Positions 74 through 64,000 of a DNA stretch of 64,000 bases are shown here, piece after piece. Position numbers and translations under genes: made by a program. Location of the stretch: the NCBI GenBank assembly GCA_903813345.2, contig CAIIXF020000001.1, positions 6,510,001-6,574,000 on the forward strand. The letters are read 5' to 3'. The notes beneath the pieces are model-generated. The model ran no database searches, was not told the origin of the DNA, and saw only the letters and a list, made by a program, of their open reading frames with translations. Position 1 is the first letter of the stretch; every line of letters starts with the position of its first letter. The DNA comes from Owenia fusiformis (Eukaryota).

Positions 74-2034
74 GTTTGTTGTTGCTGGTGACAAGTTGAA
101 GCAGCGTGTAAATGAGAAGAGGATAGGTGTCTACAGATATGATAAAGAAATGGGTCTGGATCCTGTAATGGTAACTAATGAACCTATCTTAACAGCAGAT
201 ATAATACCAGGTTTACTAGCCATTTGGTGGATTGAACCTGGACATATCCTTCAGAATGTTGTCACTTGATTTTGTATGAAAAGATTCATATATGAGCCTG
301 GCCATTGGAAAATTGGTCTTATCACAAAAATTAAAAATTGTGCTACAGAGCCAAAAATGTGCCCACGATTAAGAGGAAAGTGTGCTAAATTCAAATCCGA
401 CTTTTTGGTCTATATATGCAAGAAAAAGTGTTAAGACAAAAGCAATGGCTCATTTGAAAGGTCTCTTTGTGGTTTTCAAGATAAACAAAAAATCGGAATA
501 TTGAAAAAATCTGTGATAAGACTCCTTTTCCCGTGGCCTGGCTCATATCTTAAAGTCAGAATATAAAGAGTGATAAACCTGCAAGCAACATGTTGCATTG
601 TATTCCTTATGACCTCAAATATAATATCTCCCAATAGATCCGGGATATGCTATACATTGGTGAAGTTATTTAAAATTCAAAGTGCAAACATGGAGGGGGT
701 TCAAAATAAAGTATGCACTTTGGAGATAGAAAATAGATATGACATAGAATGATACGATATGAGCCAGAAATGTCCTGAAATTCAAACGATTTTTTATTGT
801 TGAGGTTGCTCGCAGATCTGATACAACCTTTAAGTCCCTAGACCAGTAGACACTGGTTTGGTGCATTGAATCTCAGGCAAAATGGAAATCATCTCATTTT
901 TTATATTTATGATCAACATGTGCAAACAAATATTTATTTAACGTATAGACGGATGTAAAACAAGATAAACAATATTATAACTGATTGCTCAAACGAGAAT
1001 AAACATAAAATCATAAAATTAACCATAACATAAACCATAAAATTGACTTATGCTGAGATGCAGAGTGGTAAATTAATATGGTTCAATAAATGTCTTTCTC
1101 AACTTTGCCCTCCACAAGGCTACATAACAAAATGAACTTTATTTATTCACATCTAGGCTAAAGAACTCAGAAATCATAAGTAAAATACCTCGATTTGCAC
1201 ATGAGAAATCGTCCAAGAATTCCCGCCAATTCAAAATTTCTTTTATGTATGATCTGGGATACTAAATTCCAAGGTATGATAAAGATATAGATGTCCTAAA
1301 CGTAACGAGAATTCGCATTTTCTCATGAAAATGTTAAGACTCATTCATCTGTTCATAATACTTTATTTTCATTTCAGACTCGAAAAGTCAGTGATCATTT
1401 TCCAGTTGAAATGGCAATTGAAGGAAGACGTAAGTCATCTGTTTTTATCTTCCCATAGAAACTCTTGAATATCATAGGCCATACGAGTGTACACTGTGCA
1501 GATATTACGAAAACGACTGACTTCTCTGGCTGTTTATTAATATTCGTGGTGGTTTCTCCATTGGTTCCTTATGCCACATCACATGTCTATATTTCTCCAA
1601 ATTAATTTTCAGGCAATTACAAGAATTCGAGAGTGACTTCATCATTTGCATACAGCCTTGAGTTCACCCCTATTGATGTAAGCAATCTGGACAAGGTGAA
1701 ATACATGGCATCTGCAGTACGTCGGAGTAGGGCATATTATGACATCAGTATCCTTGGGGATGGAGAAAACGATGTGATGTTCACAGCAACAAAGCAAAAA
1801 TATAGAGGCTCTGTCTACAGGACAGTGAAACTGTTCTCATCTAAATTTCCCGGCATTTTGAGCAATGAAGTTCTGGCAACACTGAAGTCCGTTTTGGACA
1901 GTAATGTGTTAAATGAAGAGCGCTATATATATGGTTCATCTGAGAAACCAGCAAAAGATCATAACATTGATATTTCTTGCCAATTCATCTCACCATTTAA
2001 ATGTACAATTCAAGTGGCAAAGCGTTTAGTCTAG
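74..2034 (+). CDS. DNase I-family (EEP) endonuclease, 3' part (5' exons lie upstream of the window), with an extra C-terminal domain exon
   Basis: Exons 74-170, 1378-1429 and 1613-2034, all AG/GT flanked and phase-consistent. They translate to (R)FVVAGDKLKQRV...YRYDKEMGLDPVM|TRKVSDHFPVEMAIEGR|RNYKNSRV...AKRLV*. RFVVAG and SDHFPVE match the DNase I DRIVVAG and catalytic SDH(Y/F)PVE motifs. Confidence 0.85.
294..544. mobile_element. Non-autonomous TIR element (MITE), Sola-like
   Basis: ~33-bp imperfect TIRs (GAGCCTGGCCATTGGAAAATTGGTCTTATCACA versus reverse complement GAGCCAGGCCACGGGAAAAGGAGTCTTATCACA), GAG...CTC termini, ATAT on both flanks (290-293, 545-548). Superfamily inferred from termini and TSD only. 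Confidence 0.6.
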
Positions 2035-7300: not shown

Positions 7301-10300
7301 TCACACATTGGCTTTTTAAGTAAATATTGGAAATAATTCTAAAGTAAAGATCTTGGCTTATTTCTTACATAATCAGATATAGCAAGCAGTTTTTCAAAAA
7401 TGTTATCACTATTTCAGATTTTATTCCTTTGCATAATAAAAAATCTCGCCTGGTGCCGAACAAAATTTGGAGGTTGTTTCCCTCTGATACCGTAGCAGTT
7501 ACATGAAGTTATATCTGAATTTTTATTTTTATTGGAAAGTATGCTTGCAAAATCTCACAACCTGCGTATGCTACATATTTGTTGTACACAAGTATTGGAT
7601 TTTGGTGCTGACTTACTTCTATGTACATCTGTATCTTTCTCTTTGGATAGTGTTTTTTCTTTTAATTCTGCTTCAAATCTGGCTAAATCTGAGTCCAACC
7701 TTCGTATGTGCTTATCTACCTGAAATAAAGAAAACTGTATTTCAGCTTTTCACCACAAGAGCAAAATGATTCTTGCCAATTTTTACACATTTGGAAATAG
7801 ATACTGATCTAAATGCTACAATAACACAGAATACTGATATGACTGGGCATTTCGAGGGAGTGGAAAAACACAATAATAAGGATCCACAGTTTCTGTGCTC
7901 TAGCAGTGAATTGTTAACAAAATATGACCAAAATTGTCAATTTCTCAAAAGAAATGTGAGGACTTGGGAAATAGCAATGACAAGTGAACCTGGTGAAATA
8001 CGAGTAGATACTGTGGATAGACATAAAATAATTGGAGATATGACCAATCATAATACGAAAAGCAGTTTTAATATGTACCATCTCTCTTGACAGATGGATC
8101 GAAACACGGTCAACTAGCTTTAGGTAGACAAACTTTTAAGGACGGACCAACAGACGGACAGACACCTGGTCGATTCCATAGGCCAAAAATTGCTCACTTA
8201 TAGTCAGTCCATTTGTACCAAGTTCATTTGTTATGGTAGACAAGAATCTACTAACTTACCATTTCATAAGTTTGATTTGCTAAATTAACTTTGTCATCTC
8301 CATATTCTTTACTTTTGACATATAGTTTTTCTATGCTGTCGTGTGATGAAGTACGTTTATCAGGTGGAAGATTCCGGACATTTTCTAAGTATTCATCTGA
8401 GAGTGTTTTGATCTCTCTCAATACATCTGAAATAACATACAAAGTACAGTGATAAATATGTCCCTTGAGCAAAACACCCCACATGTCCTATTACAAATCA
8501 GGAACATACAATAATTACATTCCTAGAAGTCATCATACAAGATGCTCTCGTAATAACATATTTAAATGAAAAAAAGTCCTGAGCATTAATTTAATAAATG
8601 ATGACATTGATCTTCCAGTGAAGTCTGTTGGCATCAGTTGGGGGTCATTAAATTAGATGTTTCAGCAACCATACAACAAAATTAACATTGTCCATTTAAC
8701 AATTCAACAAGAATCATTTCAAAATGAAATTTCACTCTCGGGTAATTATCATTTATTTCTTATGAAAAAAGGCAAGTTGAGTGATTTGAACACGTACCCT
8801 GATTTCGTTGGTCCAAGTCCCTCATTAATGTGAAGTTTCTCTGTAGATCAGCTGGCAGACTTTCAAGACCTGAAATATTGAAAATTAAAAACAAAGTCAG
8901 TTATCGAGAGGGTATGATTCATATTGTAGTCAGCACTGCTACATACAAGAAGAGGTCACCTGGGGATTGTCTACAATAACCTTGCAATTCCAACATTATG
9001 AAGCCCTTGAAATATGACTGTCTTTTCTGAGTACTGCAGTCTAGTTTTTACACCCATGCAGACAGATTGCTTGACATTCACCAGGAAAGTAGAAACATTT
9101 TGTCACCCATGAAGCAAATTAATTTCTTACTGTCACAAATGGCGGACATAACCGTCGCTTCAATAAGATTTTCATGACCTGTATATGTTTAATAGAGCAC
9201 CTATACTAAATTCCTTTGGAACAACAATCAATCAAAGTGTCTTAATACTCATTGTACAGTTGATGATGTTCTACCATCGAAATAAAGTCTTTAACTTAAC
9301 AGATCAAAATGAGATATGGGACAACGGACACTGTTATTACCATAGATTTTAGATTTAGATTTATGAACTTTATTACACATTCATACCCATAAAAAAGGTT
9401 ATAGTTAGTGAGGTAGCACCGAAAAATGTACCCGCTTCTGAACAACTTGAAATTACTTGTTTCTTATGTATTTTTATGTGATACTTCAGAAAATTTTTGT
9501 CTGATGCGCCGTATCCGGGGCGAAAGTTGTCAAAATTGGGTTTTTGACCCTAAAAAGGAAAATTACAGGGGGTACATTATCATAATTGAATAATTCATTC
9601 AGTTGGTCTTCAATCATCATAATAATTTTATCGATAGTTGATGAGATCATTTTAAGGTAGTATGCAAACTTTCAATGGTCTGTCACTCGTGGTTGCCATG
9701 GAAACCACAATTTTTGCTGAGAAAATCCTTAATTTTGGTAAAACCTGTACCTGTACATAATATAGAATGTGGATTATTTTTTAAATCAACAGATATCAGA
9801 ACATTTTAGCATTTTCAAAATTATCAGGGCAGTTCAAACATTTATTTAAATATAAAGGATATTGCAATTAACATAACTGGGGAGTGTCAAAGACCATACA
9901 ATTACATAAGTGATCAAAAGTGGGCGTCGCCCTTATCATAGTAGATGATTGCCATTCTCTAAAAATACAGAGTCTTACTTGACTTTTGAGATACATTTAT
10001 AATGATGTTCTTTGGTTATACTAAATATGAAGCATTTTTGGTAAATAATGTACATGTAAGTGTTATACTTATTGCATTGGGGAGGGGGTAGATGGGGGGG
10101 GGGTAACAGAATTGGAAGAGGGCAAAGCTAATCACCCTTAAGTATAAATCTCATCTACATAGTTCTGGATTTCATGGGGTACATCTTCTGGGTCTTCTTC
10201 ACATTCATATAGGATATTATAATTCTGCATGATTGGTAAGTATAAAGACCATAGAATTACTCAAGTGATCAAAAGTGGGCGTCGCCCTTATCATAGATTC

Positions 10301-13300
10301 ATTCTCTATAAATTAGGGGTGGGACGGATAACCGAAATACCGAAAAACCGCGGTTCATAGCCTTCGGATCGGTTTTCGGATCACGGCCCTACTTTCGGAT
10401 CAGCTTTTCGGATCGTTTTCGGATTAATATTTCATTGGTCAAGTATCAATAAAACAGTTAAAAACACTGTTTTACAGCAACATTTTTGATATTCCTAGTC
10501 CCTACCTTGCTAGCTCACTCGTTTACTAGATTCGTTTCGTATCCGCGTATTCGTATCCCTCGGTAATCAATCATGTGGTCCCTGGTACTATATTCTTTAG
10601 TCGTGTATTCTAAATAATATGTATTGTTCATGAAATACTATAACATAAAATTCCATCTATAAAATATTGTTATAACGTGGCATAATTGATACAAAGCAGC
10701 TAATCATGTCAATCAATACAAATCCTTAAAATGAATGAACCGAACCGAAAAAACCGAACCGACGGCTGATGATCCGAAAAACCGAACCGAACCGAACCGA
10801 AACGAACCGTCCCATCCCTACTATAAATACAGAGTCTAAGTTGACTTTTGAGATACATTTACATTACAACTTCTTTGATTATACTTAATTTCAAGCATTT
10901 CTGGTTAGTAATGCACATCTAATTGTAATAGTTCTTGCCTGGGGGAGGATGGGGGAGAGTAGTAACAGAATTGGGAGGGGGCAGAGGTAATCAGCCTTAA
11001 GTATGAATCTCATCTGCATAGTTCTGGATTTCATGGGGCACATCGTCTGGGTCTTCTTCATATTCATCTCAATATATGGGATATTACAAGTTACAGGATT
11101 TGTCAAACACCATACAATTACATATTTATAAATGATCAAAAGGAGTGTCACCCTAACAATAGTAGATGATTGGTTCTTTGTATAAATACAAAATTGAACT
11201 TGACTTTTGAGATACATTCATAGTTATACTGAACTGCTGTTATTATAATTTATGTCAAGCATTTCTGGTAAATACACCTTTGTAAGTATGTATTATAGTT
11301 TTTACATTTGGGCAGGGGTGAGTAGTAACAGAATTAGAATGTGTAGATCTAATCTGGCTTAAGTATCAATCTCATCTTTTTAATTCTGGATTTCATAGGG
11401 TACATCTTCTGGAGTTTTCTGATTCATCTCCTGGTGTTGCTATACCACCAATCTCTTGTATGAGAATATCAGTCAATACCCATTATAACGATGGAGTCAT
11501 TTAGTTTCCATTCAAGTCCATCTGGTGGTTCACTACGAGGATTTGCAATATGGGCCATACAGACAATAAGTGCTTTATATGGATGAGATGGTTACAACAA
11601 TCTATTATCTAGAGATGAGATGAGTGTGACACCCATAATGACCTTGGAAAGGCACAAATAGCAAGTATAGAAAAAGACATAAAGATGACAAAAACCGCAA
11701 TCAAAGACTTCCTTGATCCATTTACCATTGAGGATGAAGGTCATCTCTACGGTGTATCATAAGGAAAATCTGTGCCAAATGATGTCGCTGCAGATCTCAT
11801 CTAATTTTAGTCAAAAGGGGAAATTGCATGAAGAGATACCATCTGAGATTAGTTGAAAAAAAGATTTCATGATCTAATAAAACATATGAAATTGAAAACT
11901 ATAGCAGCAAACTACAGCAGCAACAGTGACAGTGACAGTAAAAAAGTACTCAGAACAAGCTTATACAAATACATTCTGAATGAAACATCTTTGAACAGCT
12001 TTGATCTTGCTTAAGAACATAAAATTAGCCTAGAATGTCTCCTGCAGTTCCTATTGAGCCCTGTGCCTTGGGCTCTAGGAACACTGACTGGACTTCTTGC
12101 AAGAACAGAGAAACGCATTCCTATGCATGAACATGTACCCACAAGTGCCAAAGGGAAAGGACCAAAATTTGTAATAAAACCCAGCAAGAAAAAGAAAACT
12201 TCTAAATGTATACAAGTCATAAGGAAAACAAACCCCAACTATCCCAAACCATAATTCAACATGAAAGGTAGTTTTGTTTCTGGATCTGGCGGAGACTGTT
12301 TCAAGATTCTACAATTGCAGATTGATTAGTTTTTGTATGTGATTATTACATCAAAAATTCTATAAAGGAACCTGAAAGAGGGGAGGGAACCTTGCCCTAT
12401 TTAAGGTAGAAAACACGAGTCCCTAAAGATTGGAATTAGTTCTTGTATGATGATGAAAACAAAAAGCAAATACAGCAAAGTGTGCTGCTGGATACTTGAG
12501 TTGGAAACAAATGAAGACTGATGTCAGTGGTATTTCCTCCAATATAGACCCTGACATATATGCAGCCTTCCTAGCACTTCACACATTCACAGATGAAGTG
12601 CCATGCAGAAGGGGCAATAGCAATAGCACCTTTTTAAAAGGCAAAGGTGGAGCGCCATATAGATACACTCAACTGGATGACTCTCAAATCTGCAAGTGTA
12701 GTGGTATATTCTCCCACATGATATTGTTAATATATTAACATCGGGAGGTGAATGAAAATGATCAGACTATGATATTAATACTTAAGACGGACTGGCCATT
12801 GGCTCTGCCCCCTCCCATTTCTACTACTACCCCCTTGCCCCCCCCCACAGGGAATAACTATTACAATACTAAATGTAATCAAAGAAGTTTTAATTTAAAA
12901 AATAAATCTTAAAGTCAAGTTAAACTCCATATTCATAGAGAATGAATTATCTACTATTGTGAGGGCTGCATCCAATTGAATGGTCTTTGAAACTTACCAA
13001 TCATGTAAATTGGAATATCCCATATATTGAGATGAATGTGAAGAAGACCCAGAAGATGTACCCCATGAAATCCAGAACTAAGTGTATTAGATTTATATTT
13101 AAGGCTTATTAGCTCTGCCAATTTCCAATTCTGTTACTCTCCCCCCCCCTCCTCCACCCTTAGGCAATAACTATTACAATAAGATGTATATAACTTACCA
13201 GAAATGCTTGACATTAAGTATAAATCAAAGATGTTTTTAAGTAAATATACTTCAAAAGTCAAGTTAAACTCTGTATTTATAGAGAATGAACCATATACTA

Positions 13301-16300
13301 TGATTAGGGCGACGCCCACTTTTGATCACATGTTTTATAATGTGGTCTTTGACACTTTGACACACCAACCATGTAAATTCTAATATCTTCTATATTGAGA
13401 TGAATATAATAAGACCAAAAAGATGTACCCTATGAAATCTAGAACCATGTAGATGCGATTTACACTTAAGGCTGATAAGCTCTGCCCCCTCCCAATTCTG
13501 TGACTACCCCCCCCCCCCCACTTTTGATCACTTATGTAATTGTATGGTCTTTGACACTTACCAATCATGTAAATTGGAATATCCCATATATTGACATGAA
13601 TGTGACCCAGAGACCCAGAAGATGCACCCCTTGAAATCCAGAACTAAATAAATGAGATTTACATTTAAGACTTATTAGCTCTGCCCATTTCCAATTCTGT
13701 TACTCTCCCCCCCCCCCCCCTCCTCCACCCCCAGACAATAACTATTACATTCAATTAGATGTACATATATAACTTACCAGAAATGCTTGACATTAAGTAT
13801 AAATCAAAGATGTTTTTAAGTAAATGTACTTCAAAAGTCAAGTTAAACTCTGTATTTATAGAGAATGAACCATATACTATGATTAGGGCGACGCCCACTT
13901 TTGATCACATGTGTAATTCTATGGTCTTTGACACTTACCAACCATGTAAATTCTTATACCTTATATATTGAGATGAATATAATAAGACCCAGAAGCTGTA
14001 CCCTATGAAATCTAGAACCATGTAGATGAGATTAACACTTAAGGCTGATAAGCTCTGCCCCTCCCAATTCTGTTACTACCCCCCCTCCCCCCTCCCCCTT
14101 GTATCCCCATGCAATAACTATAACACTTATATGTAAAAATGCTTGATATTAAGTATAACCAAAGAAATTCAATATAAATGTATCTCAAAAGTCAAGTAAA
14201 ACTCTGTATTTATAGAGAATGGCAATCAACTACTATTATGGGGGCGACGCCCACTTTTGACCACTTATGTAATTGTATGGTCTTTGACACTTACCAGTCA
14301 TATAAATTGCAATATTCTTTCTCTTTAAACAAATGTTTGGACAGCCCTGGTGATTTTTAGAGTGCTAAAATGTTCTGATATCTGTTGATTTGAAAAATAA
14401 TCCACATTCTATATTATGTACAGGTACAGGTTTTACCAAAATTAAGGATTTTCTCAGCAAAAATTGTGGTTTCCATGGCAACCACGAGTGACAGACCATT
14501 GAAAGTTTGCGCACTACCTTAAAATGATCTCATCAACTCTCGATAAAATCATTATGATGATCGAAGACTAACTGAATGAATTATTCAATGATGTTAATGT
14601 ACCCCCTGTAATTTTCCTTTTTAGGGTCAAAAACCCAATTTTGACAACTTTCGCCCCGGATATGGCGCGTCAGACAAAAATTTTCTGAAGTATCACATAA
14701 AAATACATAAGAAACAAGTAATTTCAATTTGTTCAGAAGCGGGTACATTTTTCGGTGCTACCTCACTACCTATTAAGTGTACACTAATTTTACAATATAT
14801 CAATACAACAGAAAACAGTATATATAACAACACACAAAATTAACACTTCATAATAAATAAATAAGTAAATAAATGAACAAATAAATATGCATCATGGATA
14901 AGCACATGAATGGTGATTGTGATACGCGTCCATTGTTTATGTCATATATCACACCCTTCTATGTTATATTACATTTATGAATAAATTCTGCTACAATTTC
15001 AATTTCTTTATTTTCACAAGACATACAATATTGGAAAAAAAGTGAATCGTCCTCCATGTTGAAAAGGTGTTTAATTGGGTTGCCGTGTGATACAAGTTTA
15101 TCGAGCATATGAAGTTGTCTTTCTAAATTTCTCAAATTCAGATTGCGTTGTCATTGACGATATCGAAGACACTATATTGTGGCGATTCAAGATCCAATTT
15201 GATCGAAATTGGGATTTTCATATGAAACATTATCACAAGAGCTCAATACATGCGCAGAATTAGCAATGATAAAATCCCATGAAATGAGGACCAAGTGATT
15301 AAACAGTTGAAGCGAAGGTTATGTCAGCCATTTGTGACAACGGTCTCTGACTTCATTGTCAGGCTATTCCGGTGTGATAAGTGTGAGAATAGCATGACCA
15401 GGGGTTTCAATAAATATTTTTTGAACAGGCCTTTGGCAATTTCATTTATGACATATGTGACAGAATGTCTTTTTCATAGACATGTAGAGCTCTATTCTAC
15501 ATGTAGGTGCATTCATGCGCCTCTGGGCCTTTATATATATATCTGAGATTTGTCATGGCCCCAGAGGCGCATCACCAAGCATTAAAAACCCTAGGCAAGT
15601 TGAGATTCTGAAAAACAACGGATCGGTTGTTTTTGCTTTTTCTCGGAGCTCCTTACCTTAATCTTTAAATTTTTTTGACCACTATGTAGCGACGTTGTTT
15701 GTCTTCAAATTGACCCTAGTTGTAATCATGTTTCTCGTGGAAATTATATCAAGAAGTGTCTTTGTATTTTTCAGGTTAGAGAAATTCGAACGAATTCCCA
15801 AAATTGAGTTGACCTACATAATTTATGCGCATGCGTGATGTCACAAGTCACGTGACTAAATGAATCTGCATATGGTCTAAAAACAATTAGAGTCACTATC
15901 TCTGTTTGGTATTCCTTATTAAAACTAGAAACTATAATAAAAGTCACTGTCTATAATGAGAATTCCTTAATTAAACTTCAACATGTGTGATTCACTCCCG
16001 GGGATTCACTGTTGAATATTGCATACTATGCAGTCTGATTGATATGAACTTTATGTAGTAAAATAGATGGCATCGTATACATTAGGGAATAACCTATCTC
16101 TTCTCGCGAAGTCTCGTGCCGCCATAGAAAATTTTGAAATAATTTAAAAAGTGATGATTTTCCTATAGTATCAGCGCAATTACATCGTGCATAACAACTT
16201 ATGTATGGTAAGTTTAACAATTTATCATATAACATTACATTGGGACAAATATATTAAAAAAAACAAATGGGAATCAAAAGAAATCAACTCCAAAGTAGCG

Positions 16301-18887: not shown

Positions 18888-21800
18888 ATGGACAAATGTA
18901 TTTTCTGTAAGATTGCACAAGGAAAAGAGGAGAAAACAACTCTTTTATATCAGGTAATGGAAATATCCATTACAATCTGGTGAAGATGCCAAATATTACC
19001 AAGTTTTTTACATGACTAAAACCAATACCTCTGTGTTTGATGAATTGAGAGAAGGCTCAAAAATAAGAGGTGCAAGGTTATTGATATACATGCGATCTAT
19101 AATATTATATGCTTAGAGCTTTAATGCATAATCTAAAAAATATTTCACATACATGTGCATGTGTAAATTGTAAAAAATTAGGCGCCAAAAATTACACATT
19201 TGAACACAGAATAAAAGTTATAATGTTATCCATTGTTATAGGATGATGAATTAGTTGTATTTAAAGATCACAGGCCAGCTGCCTCACATCATTACCTCAT
19301 CACATCAGTGGAACACATCAAAGATGTAAGAGAACTAACTGGCAAACATGTAGAACTAGGTATGTCTGATATTAAATTCATCAATAATGCTGTGGAGATC
19401 TTCATATCATCCTCCATCGCGCTTTTTGCCCAGTTTTTTCCTTTTTAAAATAATTAAACCTTTGAAAAAATGGACCATCAGTTTTCAAAGGAGTCTGATT
19501 CATTTGAGCTTCAGTAAAAATGATTTTTCTGATTCTTGTTTGGAAGACTGAATTGATTTCCATTTCTGATTCTCATTTACCCCAATGATTTACAAAGGGC
19601 TTTGATCACTTCCTTTATTATCCCAACGAACGGAGTTCGGTAGGGATATAGTGAAGCCCTCAGTCTGTGTGTCAGTCCATCCGTCCATCTGTCCGTCCGG
19701 AAGATAACTCGAATACTAGTAGACGGATTTTCTTCAAATTTGGAAGAAAGATGTATATTGGTGAATACATGTAGTTGTGTGCAACAAAAAAATTCCAAGA
19801 TGGCCACTGCTTAAAAAATGGCGGGAATTTTTAGAGCCAAGCATTTCACAATAATTTTCTGATCTCTTCAAAGTATGGCTATATTATTCTCAAATTGAAG
19901 GTTTAGGGCAGATCACTATTTTGGTATTGTTTTCCTGACTTGAACATCAGAAAATTCAAATTGTCTTTATTATTTGTGATTTTAAAAGGTCACACATGCT
20001 TTTAAAATTGGTAGAAATTCTGATATATCTCTAATGTTTCCAATGTTTACATTTTTGTGACAAATACAGATTCATCTATGTTATAGTGTTTGTTGGGATT
20101 TGCTACTTCTTTGAGTTGCCGTTTTCTAGTTTTGAAATGGTCAGCCAGCAAAGCAACATGCAGTTGTTGTTTAAATTGTTGCATGATCTATTATTGATAA
20201 TTTTTTCTGATTTTCAGTCGAACGATTAATAGCAGTTGGTAAACAAGTTTTGGAAGAACAAGGAGGCAACACAGCTGATGCCAGGTGCGTTTAAAGGTGC
20301 ACATTTTATACATTCAAAGTTACTTTACCAAATTGTACTGCTAGTGCCATAGGAAATATTTTAAAACCTGACATTGGTATTTAATATGGCCTTGATCTTA
20401 GTTAGTTCTGACCTTAGTTAGTCTGACCTGATCTGAGGTGGAAAACTGTCAGCCTCTGACCTGAGGTATGTAGTATGATCTCTGTTAACCTCTTGACTAG
20501 ATGTATAACACTGTGACCTTGTTGACCTCTCACTAAAACTCAATATGCAAAAAAGACCTGATGTTTAACACTGTTAACCTCTGATATGAGGTAAATCACT
20601 GTTGACTTCTTTTATCCTCTGACTAGAGGTATAACACAGTGACTCAGTTCTGACCTGACCTTAATTCTGACCTGAGATTTAAGTTCAATTAACACTGTTG
20701 ACATTTTATACCTCTCACCTAAGGAATATCACCAGGAATGTGAAAACATCTCTATACAACAATAAAAAAATTTATGAATTTGTTGCTTTGGTCCATTTCA
20801 GAATTGGATTCCATTGGCCCCCAGTGACCACTATACAGCACTTGCATCTACATGTCATAGCACCAGAGGCTGAGATGAACTGGTTCTGGCGCCTTGTTTT
20901 CAAACTAAACAGTTATTGGTTCGTATCAGTAAGTATATTCATTCCATAATAACATGTTTTCCCTAGGAAATTAACAGGGAATTGATATTCAAAAAACCTG
21001 TATCAGATCTTGTATCAGCCAAAATACATCGCAATGTATATCGCCAAAACTGATTCTGGTGATGCATCGATGTACATGGCGATGTGTATCGATGTTTAAC
21101 TGAAAATTGCAGATGCAACAATGCACTATTATGGCACATTGCGACAACACTAAATTATCAGATCCTGTATTGGATCCCGTATCAGCCAAAATCCTGTATC
21201 AGAAGTATTTCCGGGGATTTAGAAGTGTTTATTAATAATTTCTATTGTAAAACTTTTTTATAAAGGTTGAAAATGTTATATGATAAATTGAATTATATCA
21301 TTTTATATTTTAAATGAGTTTCTTAAAAAAATATTATGGAACAATAAGTTATTGATGGTTGTCATGGAATATAATTTTTTTCCTCGAGAAAATATGATAT
21401 TAGCCTCCTTGGTTAATATCATATTTTTCCCCTGAATAAAAATCATTTTCCATCCCTCCCATTAAATAACCTCTATTCATTGTCCTGCAAACTCCTGAAA
21501 AGTTAATCTGAGTGTTCACCTGAAAGTTAATATTATAGATTTTTATAGACCTGGGAGGCCTGGGTCATGCTCCCACCATTACAATCCTGATGTAATGCAA
21601 CAACTGACCAATTTTCAAATACAAAAAGGGAGACTCCCTCCAAATGGTATATGCATTCAACTCTATTGAAATGTTCAGGGTTGTGTTCTTGAGGATGAGA
21701 AAAGGTGGCACCCAAATGTGCGGGGTGTGATGAGAGTAGGTCCTCAGCTCAATCTTTTCAAGAGCACCAAACAGTCAACTCAGAGGCCATTGAAAAGCTG

Positions 21801-43700: not shown

Positions 43701-46700
43701 TTTAATGTGCTTAAAATGTTCGAATGATTTTCATCATTTAAAATCACCATGGAAAGCCGATCTTTTAAATCTCGACACAAATCATTCTCACTTTTCCTTT
43801 TGTCTCGAACGATAAAGACGATCGATTTCCAAATAACAATGAGAGATTTTTAATCATTTTCGAATAATTGAATTGAGATATATATTATTGTCGGAATCCA
43901 TCGTGTATAGTACCGTGCAATACGACACGTACAGATTAAAGAATCTAGCTTGATCAATTGATTTAAAGAAACGCATTCGTGATCAATGATACAATTAATC
44001 CTAATGTATGCAACCTTTTTTATAACACCAGTTCGCAAGACCAAATAAACCTCCTACCTAAAGGTCAAATCGAGGTCAGCGTGACTTAGGGGGTGCCAAA
44101 AATGTTATATTTCATAAAAACAATAATCTATTATCTTTCAAATGAAATAAAAATCTAGGTAATAGCTTTTCTAGAACTGAAATCAATGGAACGCGTAATT
44201 GAATAATCAACATTTTCAAGTTATTTTTGTCTTTAACATTCATATTTCAAGAAGTACTACCAATAACAATCGGTGATTTAGTAAGAAAATAGATAATTGC
44301 TGACTTAACTATGATTTCTGTCTATGATTTTGCCTAGCAAAGGAATATAAATCGATATAGTGAAATTGAAAAATTGGGGGTAGGGGAGAATAAAAATATA
44401 CATCTAATTTAAATAAAAGAGGTTCATCATTATAATTAAACGATACCACAGTTTGCATAAGCATTACGGAACATGCGCAAAAATTGCAAAGGTATTCATC
44501 AAGTAGTTTTTGATAAAAAAAACTGTTTTTCTCTCGTGAAGAGAACGAGAATCACGAATATTTGGCGAAATTTTATTTTAGTTTTAAAATCCATAAGATA
44601 GTCAGTCAATAGTGACTCGATTTTCATGAAATAAAGCATGTTGGTAAGAGAATTCAATCTGTTAATTGATTATTTGCCAAACAGAGCAATAATGATTACT
44701 TTGCATTTTCTACAGTATTAGAATTGTAGAAACAAGGTATTAACTTTCAATATTTCATTTTTCAAAAAGTGTCATTTATCTGTGGCCAATCATATGGTAT
44801 CCACAAACATTTCTTTAGGCTAGTGTGCTCGAGATTACTTTTGCACAATACAATAAGAAAATATGAATAAAGAACATAGGTAAATTAATAAGCCTTTTTA
44901 TTCTCACTTTTCAACACTACGCACTGGCGTTTTGGCGTACATTGTTCCTACGCCACTGCTATGACAACATATCCTTGTTCTATTTTCAGATCAAAAGATC
45001 TACCTGACTCGATGTACAGATGGTGCAGTTCGTTACGAGGGCTACAGATCAGGGACAATCGTTTCCCAACAACGTGGGTTAAACTATACAACAGGAATAG
45101 ACTGTAAAGTTATAATTGGTGTACCTGAAGGGTATTATATAAGACTGAGATTCTCGAAGTTTGAAGTACAAGAACCACAAGATGGCAATTGTCTCGACTT
45201 TGTCAGAGTTTTTGAAGGTTTGTAAAACAGATGAATTTTTTTTTCTTTTTATATTCTTTTTATTACTTGAAAATAATGATAGGTTAGGAATCCATGTAAT
45301 AATCTTTCTATTATTGAAAAAAAAGATTTTAGTTCTCATTATATATTTTTTTCTTTATTTGGATTCCCTTATTAAAGGGGATTACAGTACAAGACTTAAA
45401 CTAGCCTCTGAAGTCAGTCCATATTGCAAGTCTTGTGTCTTGGTTTTGTGTATACATGTACTATAGGAAGACATTGCACTCTGTTTATGTTAGCTCAAAT
45501 ATGATATTATAAAAATGTTACTATATTAAGACCACTTCTGAAGTGGGGATTCTCATATTTAACAGTAAATATGTGTATTACATACCTAGCGAAGCATTTG
45601 TATGGAAGTCAATGGGAAAGTTAGCGAGCTATATCCACCGATATTGCCCGATTACCCCGATATAGCCCGCTTACCTCGTTTTGATATTAGATTTCTTTAA
45701 TAACCATGATAATATCATGACGTCACGTCATTGATACAAAGTAACCATGGGAACAAAGGCATGTAATACATCAGTTATGTCACTATGACGTGAAATATGC
45801 CTGAGTTCTCCCAATATAGGCCGACCTTGGGAGGCTCTATATTTGGGCAAGAACTCAGGCATATTTCACGTCATAGTGACATAACCTCTAAGTATATGAA
45901 CTCCTCTCTTACAAGTGAAATATGAACACCTTTTTGTACCATTGACTCCTGACCCCATATTACCATGCATTTGCTTCCATGTGAACACCTCAAACAAACA
46001 GACAGTCCCATGCAATCTTTTTCTTTCTGTACTTTTATTTCATTTAAATGATATCTCTTCAGGTCAGACAACCCAGTGGAAGCCATTATCTTCTAAACTA
46101 TGTGGCAATATAATGCCCCCTGCTATTATGAGCAGCAGCAACTATGTGACAATCTGGTGGAAGACAGACAACACTCAGGGGAACTCATTGCCAGGGTGGC
46201 AGGTTGAGTTTAAAAGAAGGAGAGGATACACAGGTGAGTTAATTCGAGTTTTAATATGGTGTTGTTATCTTAAGTGGTGATTACTCTCAGACCCACCTAT
46301 ACTGAGCCAGGTCCATCTTAAGGTTTAATTATTAGAAGGGGCCTTTAGGAGAAAAGTTCAAATAAAAACCATAAGACATTGTGTTTTATTTCAGAAGTGT
46401 TGGGGAAAATTCACTTTTGAAGATGTATTAATTTTTGATACAAAAAATACAGAACTATGAATAACTTGTAATGTTGTTTTTCAGTTGAAAGAAGACACTG
46501 TCTCCACTGCAATAGCTCTGATGAGACATCAAGCTGTTTCGCAAATACCACAACTGTAAAATCCATGAAATGTCCTGCTGGAAAGCCCCACTGTTACAGC
46601 TTAGCCAGATACATCAACAATACGGGAGAATTTCTGGGGGTAGAGCGGGGGTGTTTTAGTAATGATGGGGATATTATTTGTCCCCAAGATTCGCACTGTT

Positions 46701-52386: not shown

Positions 52387-55300
52387 CTAATGGTGGAAAA
52401 GACGAATAGTGGTGTGGGCCATTGCAATCTTGTGATCATCACATGCATCAATAACTGCCTGATCATTGGTCGATCCAGCTGGCGAAGCGATAAACTCAAC
52501 GCCACTCTGAAACAGAGGCACATACAAAATTGTTCACATACATCCTAAATGAAGAGCTGTTATTTGGGAAAGGAGTTTAAAAGTGATGACAATTCATATT
52601 CAATTTCAGACAAACTTCATTTATCTATCCACTGATTGATGGCCATAAACAATATTTGGGGTTTGAAAATAGAAGGGAAATTAATGCACTAAGTGACTCC
52701 ACATACAAGATTATATTTTTTAGAAGTACATGTAGTATAGGCCCAATGAGCAAGGGGAAACACAGTGACCTGAGACAAGACTACATCTTATATAAAGACA
52801 AATTATTTCTGTACCTGTTGGGCCCTATCAATGTTGTCACGGAATGGGAAGAAGGCATCGGAGCTCAGCGCAACGCCTTTCAGTTGGGACAACCATTCAG
52901 ATCTCTCAGTCTGGAATACATATTCGAACATTGAAAACAGTTTGGTGCTACATATGCAACATATATCACACCATTATCAGCTTTTTCAATTTATAAATCA
53001 ACAAAAGATGTGAATGTAGGTACACACTCTCTCCCTCTCTGACAGCCTTTTACATGTTTGGGGAATTTTGTATATTCTGATAAAGGTTACTCACCTCTGT
53101 AAGTTTGGAAGGAGGGTTTTCAAGCATGCTTTCCCAGGTGGCAGTATCCATATCCTATAAAGCAATCATAAAAATGAAAGAGTCAATCAATGAAAAAACA
53201 ATCGACTTATCAATCAAGCAATCAATTCAATTATAAAAATATTAAATATAAGGAAACATCTTTCTGATTGTACACACTTTTATAACTTTCTACTGTATTT
53301 AATCTATCTGTTTTATTATCAGATGTTATATTAAGTGTATCTTTGCAACGGTACAGCCCGTAGCCAGGGGGGTTCGCAGGGTTCGGCCGAACCCACCCCC
53401 CTGACCAAAAATTCTTTCAAAATCATGCAGTTTTCACCATTTTGAGCACTTCTCAAGTGATTTTAGCCATATTTTGGCCAAAAATTGTCAAATGTGAACC
53501 CCCCTGGAAATTTTTGAAAACTGGACCCCCCTTGGCAAATCCTGGCTACAGGCCTGATGTATATTAAACTATATTGATCTACCTGACCCACTGTTCCATT
53601 GACATACACATCAATAACATTGGACATCTCAGCACGCTTAACTCCCTTCTTGAACTCCATAGCTTTAACCTTAGGGTGCTGCCTCAACCACCTAGACAGG
53701 GAGAATGACAGATTGTAGACATATTTCTTTTGACATGTCAGTTTATTGCTCATGAACACATGTAATATACATACATGTATACTGAATATGGTTAGGTATT
53801 TATCTATATGGAAGGCACAGTGAAAAGATTGGCACAATTTACAATTTTGCATTTATTAATTTGATTCCATATCCAGGGATTTAGTAATATTATAAAGGTG
53901 CAATTATGGAAGATCCAAGATATAGTACATGAGACCAACCATTTTTTAGCTTTATGGAATTTAGTAATAAAAACGTAATGGTTGGATATAATAACAAGTA
54001 GGAACCAACCAGTTGTTAGCTTTATCTCCTGCTAAGCGTACACAGTGAATCCTTGACTGCTGACCTGCCCCGATGCCAATCACCTGACCATCTCTAGCAT
54101 AACACACAGAGTTGGACTGGGTGTACTTCAGAGCAATGGTGGCCACAACAAGGTCCCTCAGAGCAGATTCTGGTAGCTGAAACATACAGAACACTTATAA
54201 AGAACACTTATACAGAACACTTGTTTTTCAGTTACAATCTACTTTTATTGAACATAATAATATCAATGACAGTTAATTCTAGGGTGAAGCAAATTTTACT
54301 GAAACCATTTTACTCAAACCAATCGCTCACTAAATGCCTGTTCTAAAAATTCTTACTTTATTAATAATTAATTATTTGTAAGGTTGCCTGGCAATAATTT
54401 TGAATATCGGACATTCAACCTTTTTAATTCTAATGAATCTAGATATTTCTCCATTAAATTCATATTTGATGCATCTTTTACAGATCTACATGTACAGTAT
54501 TCTTCTTTGCTGCCTTTAAATTGAAGCTATTATTTCAATTTACAATGAACTTTAATCAATAATTAGGTCATAACTAAATCAGCTTTGATGAGTTTTTTTC
54601 ATACCTCATTTCGCTTTGTTACAACATTGGTGAATATTTCTGGATTGATCACTGCATCATTGTGTTTCTGTTGCATGTTTAGACCAAATAATGTCCTTGT
54701 CTCCATCTCAGGGGGCTCATAGCTGGTGTCCATCTAAGGGGTAATATAATTCATTATGTATATCATTGAAATTATGCTCAATGACTGAAAGCTGCAACAA
54801 TGTGATTTAGTTCATGGACCACTTATTTGTTTAAGTGACAGCAACAACATAACAAAATAGTATAATAAAAAATTGTGCCAACATGGATTGAAAACAATGG
54901 CTGAGACAATTTTGAAGATTCTCAAAATATCCTAAGGCCTGAATTCAGCTTAAGGTGAACATACCTGTAGAACACAGTATTTTCCTCCCTTCTTCTTCTT
55001 AAGAATTGCCAATGCTTCTTCACCATAACTTGGGGCTATGATTCCATCTGACACCTGCATACAAAAATGTAACTGTCTGTCAAATGCTATACCTGTTGCT
55101 GTATCAGTTTAAAGGATTATAATATATGGTGTTGGTGAAATTTGAAATAAAATGAAATTAACTGAAGTGAACAGAAAATTCACTGATTTACTAATATTCA
55201 AGACAAGAGGCTAATGTCATCATTTTACACATTTTTCGTCTTCTGCCATGGTATGATCATAAAATATTCTCAACGGATCTGAAAGAAAATTTGGTATGTG

Positions 55301-58300
55301 TTGTTTATAGCAGTAGCAGATATTGTATGCTGGGGTTGTAAATAGTATGTACATGTACAACATTGACACTAATTTCCTTACCTCACGGGATATAATCCTC
55401 GCTGTTGGCACATCACATTCATCAGATAAAGCGACAAAATCTCCAAAAGACGACATCCTATCTGCTCCCCTTGCCCTTGCATATGCTATAGCTTGTGGGG
55501 TGAGGATCTCTAGCAGGTCATCCACCATACACAGCTTGGCCTGTTCTGTACTGAGGGGGAAGCCTACAGCAGCACCTGGCAGCACATAGAACACAATGTT
55601 AAATATTCTTCCCTGGCCTTTCTCCTTTTCTATCAAGTTCTTTGGATCTTAAAGATGAATGTTTAGTGAGCGCAACAAATACAATACGAGTGTTGCTGTA
55701 ACACTGTGAGTGATTCTAAAACACTACTGGTCAAGCATTGTTTGATAATAAGTGACCTACCTGCAGGGCTAACATGCTTGAATGATGTAGCAGCTGGTAA
55801 TCCAAGAGCTTGCTTCAGTTCTCTAACAAGCTGCCAGCCATTCAGGGCATCACATAGATTGATGAACCCAGGTGACCCATTCAACACTGAAATGTTCACA
55901 AACACATATAGAATCAATATAAATCCACACATGTATCTACAGAACGTCTTTCCCAGCTGTTTTAAAATCTCACTCCTGGTCCTTATCTCTCAAAGGAGCT
56001 TATTTACTGTCAGCAAGTTACTTTTATAACGCAGGAGCACACTTTCCTTGATGCTGTAGAAATACCTCATTTAGTAGTTCAAATATCAACTTTATATGCT
56101 AAATGAACTATTTCAAGTTATACAGAATACATTACCTGTAACAGGGAGCTTGGGTTGGGTAGTGTAGAGCTGGGCAGGCTTCTGGTGTGGGTTCATGCCA
56201 TACCTCAGAGGGAGCTGGGACACACCCTCACTGTATTCCCTTCTGAAGTAATCTGATATTGCTCCGTCATACTCAGCTGTGTGGTTGAATGCCTAGCAAA
56301 GAATCCATTGATGTACATGTAATTTGTAAGGCAAAACATTTACAGTATAATATTTCTTTGAGATAACTTGCATCTTTTTTCGGAGGAATCTAAATCCAAA
56401 TAGCACTCTCTCAACAGACTTCACGCTAGACTCACAATAAAATGTTTTCTTTTAAAAACAGTTTCTCCTCAAATTGCATATTTTCTCTTGTTTGTTGTCC
56501 AAGATATGAAAAACAAAAATCAACACAACCATAATACAGGACAAGATTTCCATATGGATATTTCAAACAAATTTTCTTTAGATACCAGAGACGTTCTCTC
56601 TGGAATGCTGTGGATGACTTGATAAAACAATCTAATAACATATTGAATTTCAATAAATCATACAACATCAATTTCTCATAAAATATGAATGTTTGAATTA
56701 TTTACTGTAGCTCAAATACTTAGTATGAATCTCTCTTTCTTAGACCTATCACCACTTAAAATAATATATCATACAATTCTGTTGATCATTGAATCTTCAC
56801 TTTTACTTGAACTGAATGAGTATGTCTACAGTACCTTAACTGCTAGTGTTTTCCTGGTGTCCACTGATGTATCTTTAGCATCAGAACTCTCCATCTCATC
56901 ACAAATGTTGTCGTAATCATTAGGGTCACAAACCACTGTAACTCTTGCATGATTCTTAGCAGCTGCTCTCAGTAATGTCACACCACCTTAAATTGAATAA
57001 GTGTAGTGAGAACAGGTTTATTTAATGTTGCATTTAAAGGAGGGCATATTACCACATTACCTCTTCCATCCACCACTTTCGTTTTGTGCGAATTTTCATT
57101 CATCAATTATCTAAATGCTACATATACATGTATGTACTATCAAAGTGCTGTTTTAGTTTCAATAAACACATTCTTTACATCCCTTTTATCTTGATGAATA
57201 AAAAGTCATAATGTCTTTTAAAGTTTATTCTTTCATAAATAAAAGTATCAAATTTGGTTCACCCTGTTAAAAGTCCCTCCAGACACTTGCACTTTCTTAC
57301 CAGTCCACAGTGAACAATTTTGACAAAGACATTTAAATAATGAAAAATGTATTTTATCAAAGAGCAATAATATAAAGGTAACAAGCCAATAACTTCTTAA
57401 AATTTCATATATGAAATTTGAATCTGTCCACTAGTATTTGAGTTATCAAAGTTTATATATCTACAGAAAATAGTAGCCAATTTGAATTGAGTGGCCATAT
57501 TGAAAATTTCTTCTCAAACAAAAGTCCTTTTTAATTGCTTATATGGCGTACTTTGCGAACTATTTTTCACCATGTTTTATAAATATTGAATAAAGTAGAA
57601 TAAAAGTGAACATTTCTTACTGGAGTAAACTACTATTGGCGGTTAACCATTAACCATCGAGAGCCCAAATAAATCACCATTATCAAACTATAAAACCTGT
57701 TTTGTAACTTGAAGTTCTCAGAAGTTCTAAGGAGCGAGACAACAGCGAACGGATTGAATCATATTTTCCAGTTACCATGGATTCATTTCATAAATTGAGT
57801 CTTGAGGAAAAGGCTGATGCTCAGAAGCCAAAGAAGCCAATCAATGTTTTCAGTATTGATCTACAGAGTGTAGCTACTGGGAAAAAATGTAATGATAGAT
57901 CACCAGCATACATCTGTGTAATTGGAGAAGATAACAGTACGATCTATGAAACATTCATCAAACCAGATCGCAGAGTTGTGTCATACACTGAACCCTATAC
58001 AGGAATAAAGTCTTCAGACCTAGATGATGCCCCAACAATGTCAGAAGTCACAGCAAAGCTCAAGGCATACTTTGGAAATCATCCAACCATAGTCGGGCAA
58101 GATAACAACTTTGGTCATACAATAGAGCTGATGACATCATTGGGATTTGAAAAGGAGAAAGATTACAAGTATATCGCCATATCTGAATGGTTCAAGTTGT
58201 ACCAGGGAAGCAGAGGTGGTAAATATCCATATCTCTACTTCACTCTAGATGTACAACTGAGGGCCTTACTTAGTGAGTTTAATGTTCATCTCTTGTACTT

Positions 58301-60705: not shown

Positions 60706-62946
60706 ATGCAATCGAACATGTCACAAGCATTAAGGTCTAAACCTTCCTTTCAAGAAGATTTGGACAGTGGAACAAAGACAAAATCTTCAAAGAAGTCCAG
60801 CTCTGTAAAAGCTAAAAGTTCCGACAAGTCGGTCATTATGAAGTCGCCAAGCTTGACATCAGAAGCCACTGCCTCTTCAATGGGAAGTGAGCCTTGTAAA
60901 TCCACGAACAATGAATCTGGTATCCCCGTGAGCTTTGTACAGGATATTACAAATGCTATTAGCACGGGATTGGGATGTATCAAAGATACAGGGTGTCCAA
61001 AAAAAAGCAGGACCGTAAGAAAGTTGAATAACTCAGTCAATTTTGCATATTTTGTCTTGAAATTTCAGAATTATTTAGTTCATTCGATGTGAATTTTGTT
61101 GTGAAAGTTTGACAATAATCTGCCAATTGAGTCAAAAATTATAGCTCCTTACAAAACATGCCCTAAATGTGCACCTCTCCTCTCTATGCACAATTTAATC
61201 CTGCGATCAAAGTTGTTGATGATCCTCCTACACACATGTCTTTCTGAATGGACAAGTTTGTTTCAAGAACAATTGCTACTTAGGCTTACTTTCCTCCTGA
61301 TGAAGTGTTACAGCATCCATTGCATTCTGAGCAATGCACTGCCTAGGTGGCAATGAGGAAACATGGAATCATCAGTCCTTTTTTGTTCGAGGGTGACTGG
61401 GGACATGCTATCACCATGAACAAGGACCAGTTAGTTCTCACTTAGTTTTTTGGAGGTCACTAAGCACCAGAAGGGACATCTTAGGAGATAAGCAGTGGTT
61501 TCAACAAGCCAATACCACCCCAAAACTGCAAATGATATGCTGAAATGGTCTAGGCAATGATTTGGTGGTCAGCTCATCAGTTGCAGAACGCAAACCATAT
61601 GGGCAGCTCATTCCCCAGATCTAAATCCCCCAAATTTTTATCTTTGGGGATTTCTCAAGCCCAATGTGTATACAGACAGGCCCCTAACAATCTTAAGAGG
61701 GCAATAACTACCCCAATATTTACCATCCACATTGATATGTATAGGTCAGGGTCATTAACAACTTTCTTAGCAGGAATCGTTTGTGCATAGAGAGGAGAAG
61801 TGCCCACTTTGACCATGTTTTGTAAAGAACTGTAGTTTTTGACACAATGGACAGATTATCATGAAACTTTCAGAACAAAATTCACATTGAATGAACTAAA
61901 TAATTTTAAAATTTCAAGGCAAAATATATAAAATTGACCGAATTATTCAACTTTCTTATGGTCCTGTTTTTTTTTGGACACCCTGTACTATGGTCGAAGC
62001 TTTAGGTGATATAAAGCAATCTTTGAAAACCGACTACCAAGCTGGTCAATATGATGATTATGGTGATATTCCTGATCAAGAGGATGAGGATCCTGACATC
62101 CTTGAACCACCTGCTAAAAAGCAGAAAACTTCCTCGTCCGAATCGACTGAAGTTTTTTCTTCCCTTATGAATAAACTTCGATCTAAGACCAAGTTACAAG
62201 ACGATAATGGACCTCCTTTATCTGAAGCTATGGCTGAAATCGTCACAGAACTAATCCAGGCGAAGCCAGAGGATGACGATATCGTATCTAAATTAGATGG
62301 TCACAAGACGCCTGAAAACGTTCCATTATTGTGCACTACAAAGGTCAATGAACCTATTTGGACTCGGGTCTCAGCCGAAGTTCGCTCTAATGATATTAAA
62401 TATCAAAAAGTGCAAACTCCCCTTGTGAAGGGTATAATTGCTTCTTCACGTGCATTGGAAGCACTGGATAATCTCAAAGAGACTCTTAGCAAAGAATCCG
62501 ATGCTTATGATGATGTGCTTACGACCATCGCGGAATTAGTGTACGAAAATATGCTATTCAGCAGTTATGCAAACTTGAAACTTAACATGCGTAGACGTGA
62601 ACTTTTCAAAAATGAAATTAATCAAAGTTTCAAGCATTTGTGCGCCAAATCTGTGCCAATTACCCAGTTTCTCTTTGGAGACGACATCTCTAAACAGGTG
62701 AAAGAGATAGCAGAAATGAATAAAACGCAACTGCGAGGCGTTTTTCCGTCTTCCACTCGGGGTAATCGAGGAAGGGGACGTGGTTACGGTGGACGTGGTC
62801 GTGGAAACAATTCCAACAACCATTTTTTAGGCCAGGGCTACGGCAGAAACAACCACCAGCGGAACTCTACCCGATATCCCAACAAGAGAGGGAGAGGGGC
62901 CAAGAGCAAATCCAGCAATGCCAGCGAGAAAACCACCAATCAATAG
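60706..62946 (+). CDS. DIRS ORF1 (gag-like), 413 aa after removal of the inserted Tc1/mariner element
   Basis: 60706-60988 joined to 61988-62946 is in frame (AAA GAT A|CT ATG). Contains PENVPLLCTTKVNEPIW, RRRELFK, QFLFGDD and an RG-rich tail. Confidence 0.8.
60989..61985 (+). mobile_element. Non-autonomous Tc1/mariner element inserted in DIRS ORF1
   Basis: CAGGGTGTCCAAAA...TTTTGGACACCCTG, imperfect TIRs of ~205 bp, TA TSD (60987-88, 61986-87). The interior has decayed transposase motifs WFQQ and PDLNP..FYLWG. Confidence 0.92.
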
Positions 62947-64000
62947 GTCATGTTGACACTATTACAATAGACACTGCACCTGAAAAGGTAAGACAAACAC
63001 TTAAAAGCTCTGTCAATTATTTTCAAGGTGGTCGACTTAAAATGTTCTTGCATGAATGGGAACGTATAACATCAGATCAGTCTATATTAGATGCTATCAG
63101 TGGTTACACGATTGAATTTTGTGATGATGATATTCAACGAATGCAATGGCCATGTAACACAAATTACTCAAGGTCAGATCATGAAAGCATGGATCTAGAA
63201 ATTGCCAAATTTGCAAAAAAGGGTATCATTGTACCAATTGATGATTCTAAAAAAGGTCACGTGTCACCTATTTTCCTGCTACCCAAAAAAGACGGGTCAA
63301 AAAGAATGATTTTAAACTTATCTGATATAAATCAGAGTGTAGAATATCATCATTTCAAGATGGAAAATCTTCAACATGCCCTCAACATCGTGTCACCTAA
63401 TATGTACATGAGTTGTGTCGACATTAAAGACGCTTACTATAGTGTGCCAATTCCTACTGATTCTCAAAGATTTCTGCAATTTGAATGGAAGGGCCAACTA
63501 TATCAATACACTTGTCTAGCTCAAGGGTTATCTTCGGCCCCCAGACTATATACTAAAATTATGAAACCTGTTTTTGCTAAATTGCGAAATGAAGGCCATC
63601 TATCGGTAGCATATATTGACGATTGCTGTCTTTTTGCAGAAACCTCTGAGCAGTGTAAGCAGAACACCTATGACACAATCAATTTGCTCAGAACACTTGG
63701 CTTCATAGTTCATCCAGAAAAGGTTATCTTGACACCAACACAGGTAATAACTTTTCTTGGTTTCGAACTTAACAGTATCAATATGACTGTAAAACTTCCC
63801 TGTGATAAAGCACAAGTTGTGAAATCTATGTGTAAATCATTATTGTCTCGTAGCAACTGCACAATCAGGGATGTAGCACAAATCATTGGTAAATTAGTAT
63901 CATCTCTACCAGGTGTTCAATATGGCCAGCTTCATTATAGAAATCTTGAAAGAAATAAAACAAAGGCTTTATCTATCAATGAAGGCAACTTTGATGCATG
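62766..64000 (+). CDS. DIRS ORF2 reverse transcriptase, open to the window end
   Basis: Uninterrupted frame from the stop at 62763-65 to 64000, in the -1 frame relative to ORF1; first ATG at 63042; YIDD at ~63612. Absent from the ORF track because it has no stop within the window. Confidence 0.9.

Follow-up and report, generated by a model that had tools for sequence, protein, structure and literature searches.

The last coding exon of a DNase I-family gene of the annelid Owenia fusiformis encodes a 140-residue tail behind the catalytic domain, and this tail is very probably a conserved domain fused to the enzyme. We analysed the gene in a 64,000-nt stretch of contig CAIIXF020000001.1 (the window; all coordinates follow its + strand), whose base 1 is preceded by the earlier exons of the gene. 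Few nucleases are as well studied as DNase I, and in this member of its family the coding sequence does end with the exon at 1613-2034. On our best reading, the tail is a real, lineage-restricted and unnamed accessory domain on a known kind of enzyme, not a new principle. Gene models containing it have already been released under the names 'deoxyribonuclease-1-like' or 'unnamed protein product'. The part of the gene that lies in the window, with residues numbered as in the public Owenia model P0002, is built as follows.

74-170, + strand: third-from-last coding exon of the DNase I gene, encoding (R)FVVAGDKLKQRVNEKRIGVYRYDKEMGLDPVM, residues 292-324 of P0002; its borders, AG at 72-73 and GT at 171-172, were read from the sequence.
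171-1377, + strand: intron, containing a 255-bp high-copy repeat at 290-544.
1378-1429, + strand: 52-nt exon encoding TRKVSDHFPVEMAIEGR, with the acceptor AG at 1376-1377 and the donor GTAAGT from 1430.
1430-1612, + strand: 183-nt intron, GTAAGT...TTTTCAG, with the pyrimidine-rich end ...AATTAATTTTCAG and AG at 1611-1612.
1613-2034, + strand: last coding exon, 422 nt, phase 1, encoding the 140-residue tail and the stop TAG at 2032-2034.
2035-2100, + strand: probable short 3' untranslated region, since sense-strand RNA reads do not continue past the 2001-2100 bin.

The 52-nt exon holds the end of the catalytic domain, with its SDH[FY]P motif, and a short linker that terminates at the invariant Gly340. 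Its junction with the last exon is in phase 1: the C at 1429 joins the GC at 1613-1614 to give an Arg codon, and the product reads RNYKNSRVTSS...QVAKRLV before the stop. If the donor at 1430 is ignored, nine further codons (RKSSVFIFP) follow and translation ends with the TAG at 1456-1458. The tail frame is free of stops for 142 codons, a length reached by just 6 stop-to-stop frames out of 8007 in the window, which is AT-rich animal DNA with a G+C content of 31-39%. Neither AATAAA nor ATTAAA was present in 2031-2400.

When the tail was searched among longer proteins, one protein was returned, and it matched with 100% identity over 99% of the tail. This was P0002, a public O. fusiformis model of 481 aa that is called 'unnamed protein product' and contains PF03372. 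Alignment of P0002 back to the window with tblastn placed residues 292-324 at 72-170, residues 325-343 at 1378-1434 and residues 343-481 at 1615-2031, all identical except for the junction codon; the last 190 residues thus fall in the window and the first 291 upstream of it. The same tblastn search found no second copy of the tail or of the catalytic part in the 64 kb. According to the portion of the source available to us, the Owenia annotation drew on RNA sequencing (RNA-seq) assemblies and splice junctions through Mikado, Augustus and PASA (PMC9977687). The first-pass annotation of this DNA had proposed a phase-1 splice into a 422-nt exon that would supply an extra C-terminal domain of about 140 aa. 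Both proposals hold: the splice signals are consensus, the phase fits, the public 481-aa model is identical, and 1613-2034 contributes 140 residues behind an otherwise complete catalytic domain.

The catalytic part belongs to the family by several measures. PF03372 matches P0002 with 40.1 bits against a cut-off of 24.5 over residues 50-297, and residues 45-337 align to residues 1-258 of the 260 of bovine DNase I (1atn_D; E 1.1e-50). Human DNase I and DNase gamma were also matched by P0002 in the comparison with the PDB. The motifs FNI, QE(I/V)RD, H(T/S)(S/A)P, GDFN, YDR and SDH(F/Y)PVE are identical between P0002 and bovine DNase I, as are both Cys of the GDFNxxC / C-x-YDR pair, which we take to form a disulfide. 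We likewise take the N of FNI, the E of QE-RD, the H of H-SP, the D and N of GDFN, the D of YDR and the D-H of SDH-PVE to be catalytic or metal-binding. The key residues of FNI, QE-RD, H-SP, GDFN, YDR and SDH-PVE are invariant in all six full-length spiralian proteins described below. Judged by its sequence, the catalytic part of the Owenia protein is an ordinary and apparently competent DNase I-family member.

Some features of these catalytic domains vary. The Owenia domain has two insertions, at about residues 105-120 and 163-181 of P0002, both encoded upstream of the window; neither bovine DNase I nor any of the other five spiralian proteins has them, and model confidence over them is below 50. 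The gastropod proteins P0004, P0006, P0007 and P0008 have the first Cys of the catalytic-domain pair replaced (GDFNADG in place of GDFNxxC), and P0002 of Owenia and P0009 of Lineus keep both. Read by eye, a hydrophobic N-terminal stretch is present in the Owenia and Lineus proteins and missing from the Haliotis and Patella proteins as modelled. Possible explanations are an intracellular site of action of the gastropod enzymes or misplaced start codons in the models.

We searched the tail with phmmer against 1.84 billion representative sequences at E <= 1e-3, and then searched longer proteins with a profile built from the matches. The phmmer search returned four proteins. Besides P0002 itself these were a 139-aa partial protein of Lottia gigantea (2.6e-9), a 430-aa 'deoxyribonuclease-1-like' protein of Haliotis asinina (2.2e-4, its residues 289-428) and a 73-aa metagenome fragment (3.1e-4). 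All five matches of the profile search, from Owenia, H. asinina, H. cracherodii, Patella vulgata and the nemertean Lineus longissimus, contain PF03372, and a protein of H. rubra clusters with that of H. asinina. In every one of the six full-length proteins (Owenia, three Haliotis, Patella and Lineus) a DNase I domain precedes the tail. The conservation of the tail exon that the first-pass annotation had asked about thus exists in molluscs and a nemertean. A search for stand-alone tails among proteins of 40-252 aa gave the Lottia partial protein alone, and among metagenome loci the pattern of the 73-aa fragment (P0005) gave 126 matches, none of which was confirmed.

The full-length evidence consists entirely of computed gene models and two of the matches are stand-alone fragments of 139 and 73 aa, so one might suppose that predictors mis-fused two adjacent genes and that the tail is a separate small protein encoded beside DNase I. 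The conserved region, however, starts at the acceptor, and its first in-frame Met is tail residue 32, past the first predicted strand. The intervening intron has just 183 nt and is in phase, the fusion has been modelled in six species, and for Owenia the model was produced by its authors with their own pipeline, driven by RNA-seq. As for the two fragments, both are truncated by the ends of their contigs (1,272 and 2,406 bases) and give no proof of a free-standing protein. The Lottia fragment begins three residues past the position where the Owenia exon starts, which would fit a shared exon boundary. We regard a mis-fusion as extremely improbable.

Eight residues are invariant in the alignment of the seven tail sequences: F75, P80, Y105, Y107, G108, C123, P128 and C131 (P0001 numbering), with C123 and C131, numbered C464 and C472 in P0002, forming a C-x7-C pair. 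Identity between Owenia and the others is 44-45% in the catalytic domain and 21-23% in the tail. The corresponding values are 63-64% and 41-44% for Haliotis against Patella, 50-51% and 35-36% for Haliotis against Lineus, and 93% and 86% for H. asinina against H. cracherodii. By these comparisons the tail has been retained, at roughly double the evolutionary rate of the catalytic domain. Tail identity between phyla spans 21-44%, and the hosts are an annelid, vetigastropod and patellogastropod molluscs, and a nemertean. The tail occurs on DNase I proteins from all three of these spiralian phyla and would therefore be older than their split. Within reach of these searches, one working by shared words and the other from a single divergent query, it appears so far restricted to annelid, gastropod and nemertean sequences, and it may well occur in bivalves, cephalopods or other annelids beyond that reach.

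For expression of the tail exon we followed two stranded RNA-seq data sets at the level of raw reads, covering about 12% of run X13 and about 6% of run X11. In X13, reads with 'first mate on -' were taken as + strand RNA because their pattern tracks the + strand exons. Their depth was 1.2-3.4 in the bins of 1-200, zero over 601-1300, 0.48 in 1301-1400, 0.59 in 1401-1500, zero in 1501-1600, 0.9-3.4 in the bins of 1601-2100 and zero over 2101-2700. The values of 0.48 and 0.59 match the expectation for about two reads confined to the 52-nt exon, and the highest depth of the gene lies on the tail exon. Runs X1 and X2 had been guessed to be RNA; their contigs run across introns, so they are DNA-like and uninformative on splicing.

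The same data bear on whether the tail exon might belong to a minor or alternative isoform, with the main product reading through the 1430 donor and ending nine residues on (...EGRRKSSVFIFP and stop). Such a product would have the normal length of a DNase I, and no read across the 1429/1613 junction is listed. The donor at 1430, however, is the consensus GTAAGT; sense depth falls to zero in 1501-1600, and the depth in 1401-1500 fits reads that terminate at 1429. The tail exon carries the top sense-strand depth of the gene in X13, and an unused exon would not keep a 140-residue domain across three phyla, always behind DNase I. We therefore consider the minor-isoform explanation very improbable. 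Read-through at the 1430 donor, which the first-pass annotation had named as a way for its proposal to fail, did not occur in the X13 coverage, a pattern of depth over exons and intron and not a set of junction reads.

Several results tell against this account of the exon and its tail. A read spanning 1429/1613 was not listed in X13 or X11, where a splice joint was reported only from at least 3 reads and depth on the DNase I gene is 1-3; none is listed because depth was too low. X11 has no sense-strand signal on the DNase I gene. Reads in antisense orientation do occur in X11, at a depth of 0.7-2.7 over 801-2100 and on exons and introns alike, and may reflect read-through or antisense transcription from a convergent neighbour. 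Of five variant codons listed in the tail exon, one is silent and four change the residue (Y31S, V36I, S77T and K115N), none of them at an invariant column. In favour of the exons, all 12 of the indel differences listed, one more having been counted but not displayed, lie outside the coding sequence. RNA support is thin: the case for splicing of 1429 to 1613 is made by the pattern of coverage together with splice signals and gene models. With these points weighed, we still hold the anatomy, a real exon encoding a conserved fused domain, to be very probably right.

The tail is predicted to be an independently folding alpha/beta domain of about 140 residues. AlphaFold2, given the seven-sequence alignment, returned a compact model of moderate confidence (predicted local distance difference test score, pLDDT, 68.2; predicted template modelling score 0.62). 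Its elements are a strand at 10-18, a helix at 26-38, strands at 44-48 and 54-62, helices at 65-78 and 85-96, and last strands at 115-124 and 130-139. In all, these are five strands and three helices. The invariant Cys pair flanks the turn of the last predicted hairpin.

Comparisons with databases did not name the tail. In Pfam the seven tails had sub-threshold matches alone (best E 0.018-0.24), and these differed in family from member to member; Hydrolase_3 (E 0.11), CbeA_antitoxin (0.018), CKI (0.093), Hydrolase_6 (0.16) and DA_N (0.24) were rejected as chance. The sole match in a profile search of PDB sequences, SRP14 (E 0.088), lay outside the top 50 of the fold search and was also rejected. 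With the model at pLDDT 68, Foldseek against the PDB gave no match at E <= 1e-3, and VIA-align over 48,161 chains reached a best Z of 5.1, where unrelated models typically reach 7-8. Weak resemblances of a two-layer alpha+beta kind, to the N-terminal domain of fold-type IV aminotransferases (Z 5.1), YwmB, TBP-like proteins and DUF4468, were unconvincing. BFVD held no match to the tail model at E <= 1e-3; the best score in the ESM Atlas was 0.79 for the Owenia tail, with nothing usable for the Haliotis tail. The tail thus appears to belong to no named sequence family and to have no convincing fold match, though a model of this confidence may still hide a known fold, in line with the earlier suggestion of an uncharacterised domain.

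We compared the protein with described members of the DNase I family. Closest is vertebrate DNase I (bovine or human DNASE1; 1atn_D, 1dnk_A and 4awn_A), of which the bovine enzyme aligns end to end and shares the motifs and the Cys pair with the Owenia enzyme. Bovine DNase I stops two residues past the aligned part, whereas the Owenia protein continues for 144 residues; the bovine enzyme also lacks the two catalytic-domain insertions of P0002. The C-terminal additions described in the available text of PMC9208542 are a basic peptide in DNase1L3 and DNase1L4, a glycosylphosphatidylinositol (GPI) signal in DNase1L1 and a somatomedin B (SMB) domain in DNase1L5. The first-pass annotation had assumed that the family carries short tails only. 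That premise falls short in the case of fish DNase1L5, whose C-terminal addition is the cysteine-rich SMB domain, PF01033 (from the same portion of PMC9208542).

Each of these additions appears to differ from the spiralian tail. DNASE1L3 and DNase1L4 (catalytic part, PDB 7kiu_A) resemble the Owenia protein in having a positively charged C-terminal addition on an acidic DNase I-type domain. Theirs, however, is a peptide, which in DNASE1L3 is required for digesting microparticle and nucleosomal DNA (PMC9208542, as far as the accessible text goes), whereas the tail has 140 residues, a predicted alpha/beta fold and an exon to itself. No sequence relation was seen between that peptide and the tail, and the charge of the tail is not kept in Lineus. 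The tail does not qualify as a short basic peptide of the DNASE1L3 type; a similar mode of action remains compatible with it. Fish DNase1L5 shows that a complete additional domain can be fused to the C-terminal side of a DNase I domain, but its SMB domain is rich in cysteines and the tail has two conserved Cys in about 140 residues. PF01033 gave no match up to E = 10 with the Owenia tail or up to E = 5 with any of the seven tails. The GPI signal of DNASE1L1 is likewise a C-terminal addition, one that changes the place where the enzyme acts. Read by eye, the tails end in charged residues (...AKRLV, ...TNRRS, ...ERRTH), and that of Owenia seems to lack a terminal hydrophobic stretch.

No described addition to a DNase I clearly matched the tail and Pfam placed no domain in it, so that an already described fusion domain, the other outcome that would have undone the first-pass proposal, was not encountered. 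Literature searches on the DNase I C-terminal domain in molluscs, on invertebrate DNase1 phylogeny and on Haliotis deoxyribonuclease gave no description of the tail. In PMC9208542 invertebrate DNase1 serves as an outgroup, and the available main text of that paper, supplements aside, mentions no C-terminal domain on it.

For the candidate roles that the first-pass annotation had offered, namely substrate targeting, inhibitor escape and partner binding, the sole functional clue in the tail is its pattern of charge. The isoelectric point (pI) is 9.4-10.2 and the net charge +7 to +17 in six of the seven whole tails, those of Owenia, the three Haliotis species, Patella and Lottia, and the catalytic domains are acidic (pI 4.6-5.9). 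We favour a polyanion-holding module because a basic tail behind an acidic nuclease recalls the basic peptide of DNASE1L3. The tail would then be a non-catalytic accessory module that tethers the acidic nuclease to a polyanionic substrate or surface; candidate targets are DNA, protein-bound or extracellular DNA, and acidic membranes or matrix. Tethering would increase the local affinity for substrate, as the short basic C-terminal peptide of DNASE1L3 does, through an unrelated folded domain. The C-x7-C pair would probably be a disulfide that stabilises the tail outside the cell, at least in the forms with a signal-like N-terminus (Owenia and Lineus). By this analogy, retention of the enzyme on DNA or a different polyanionic surface through its tail is a tentative proposal that we place clearly below an even chance.

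The polyanion-holding proposal faces objections of its own. The Lineus tail is acidic, with a pI of 5.35 and a net charge of -3, and the invariant residues F, P, Y, Y, G, C, P and C are structural, none of them basic. The tail model resembles no known nucleic-acid-binding fold in Foldseek or VIA-align. In a model of the full-length protein the tail has a pLDDT of 28-64, and its placement relative to the nuclease is of low confidence. The gastropod enzymes may, in addition, be intracellular, where a disulfide in the tail would be unlikely.

Some of these points lend themselves to the main rival of the polyanion-holding proposal, in which the tail is a protein-protein module: either a regulator or pro-domain acting within the molecule, which would mask the nuclease until its removal, or a docking or oligomerisation domain with a partner in the matrix, on the cell surface or among inhibitors. 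The invariant residues are hydrophobic, aromatic or structural, one tail is acidic, and the fold is unlike known DNA-binding domains. The linker is moreover dibasic in Owenia (GRRNYK) and Haliotis (GKKN), which offers possible processing sites. The dibasic linker is not kept, however, in Patella (GLADNK) or Lineus (GEKIYG); docking on the catalytic domain is not indicated by the full-length model, with its low-confidence placement of the tail; and six of the seven whole tails are strongly basic beside an acidic nuclease. We judge a protein-binding or regulatory module to be fairly unlikely.

Taken as a whole, the explanation that joins a real conserved fused domain with the polyanion-holding mechanism falls a little short of an even chance. 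A broader version would have the tail as an unnamed, spiralian-restricted domain with a fold of its own, a single origin before the annelid, mollusc and nemertean lines split, and DNase I as its exclusive partner, extending the reach of the enzyme to substrates such as protein-coated or extracellular-trap DNA. This version is possible, though on the unlikely side.

Around the gene, the repeat at 290-544 in the intron 171-1377 stands out: its 255 bp reach a contig depth of about 8,000-15,000 in X1 and X2, against about 14-40 in the flanks; the contrast in X1 is about 15,000 to about 20. It is present once in the window, and one X1 contig joins 289 straight to 545, skipping it. It looks like a very high-copy short element of the kind of a short interspersed element (SINE) or a miniature inverted-repeat transposable element (MITE), polymorphic for insertion. 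Downstream, a convergent transcript from the - strand, with a depth of 10-29 against 1-3 for the DNase gene, extends from about 2300 to beyond 3000. It ends near 2300, some 270 bases past the DNase stop codon, and TTTATT at 2321 (+), the complement of AATAAA, lies near this end. The transcript is probably the long 3' untranslated region of an ING-family gene, which is the first of the other features of the window.

8254-8487, - strand: exon for an ING N-terminal histone-binding domain (PF12998, E 1.7e-8).
19242-19445 and 20683-20946, + strand: HIT/DcpS_C-like exons.
44965-45222, + strand: CUB-domain exon.
55223-55989, - strand: exons of AICARFT/IMPCHase, the purine-synthesis bienzyme.
61900-63998, + strand: retrotransposon copy, with two long open frames of 348 aa and 411 aa, in that order, the latter cut off by the end of the window.

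The second frame of the retrotransposon, at 62766-63998 (+), contains a reverse-transcriptase domain (RVT_1, E 1.3e-21). The nearby genes suggest no function linked with that of the DNase I gene.

In conclusion, the tail of this Owenia enzyme defines a small domain family named in no database. The vertebrate DNase I family, according to the available part of PMC9208542, diversified its function largely through C-terminal attachments, namely the basic peptide, the GPI signal and the SMB domain. A fourth, unrelated attachment across three invertebrate phyla points to a putative way of directing a secreted or cellular nuclease to its substrate. If the broader version given above is true, the tail would be an independent and structurally unrelated counterpart to the basic-peptide solution of vertebrate DNASE1L3.

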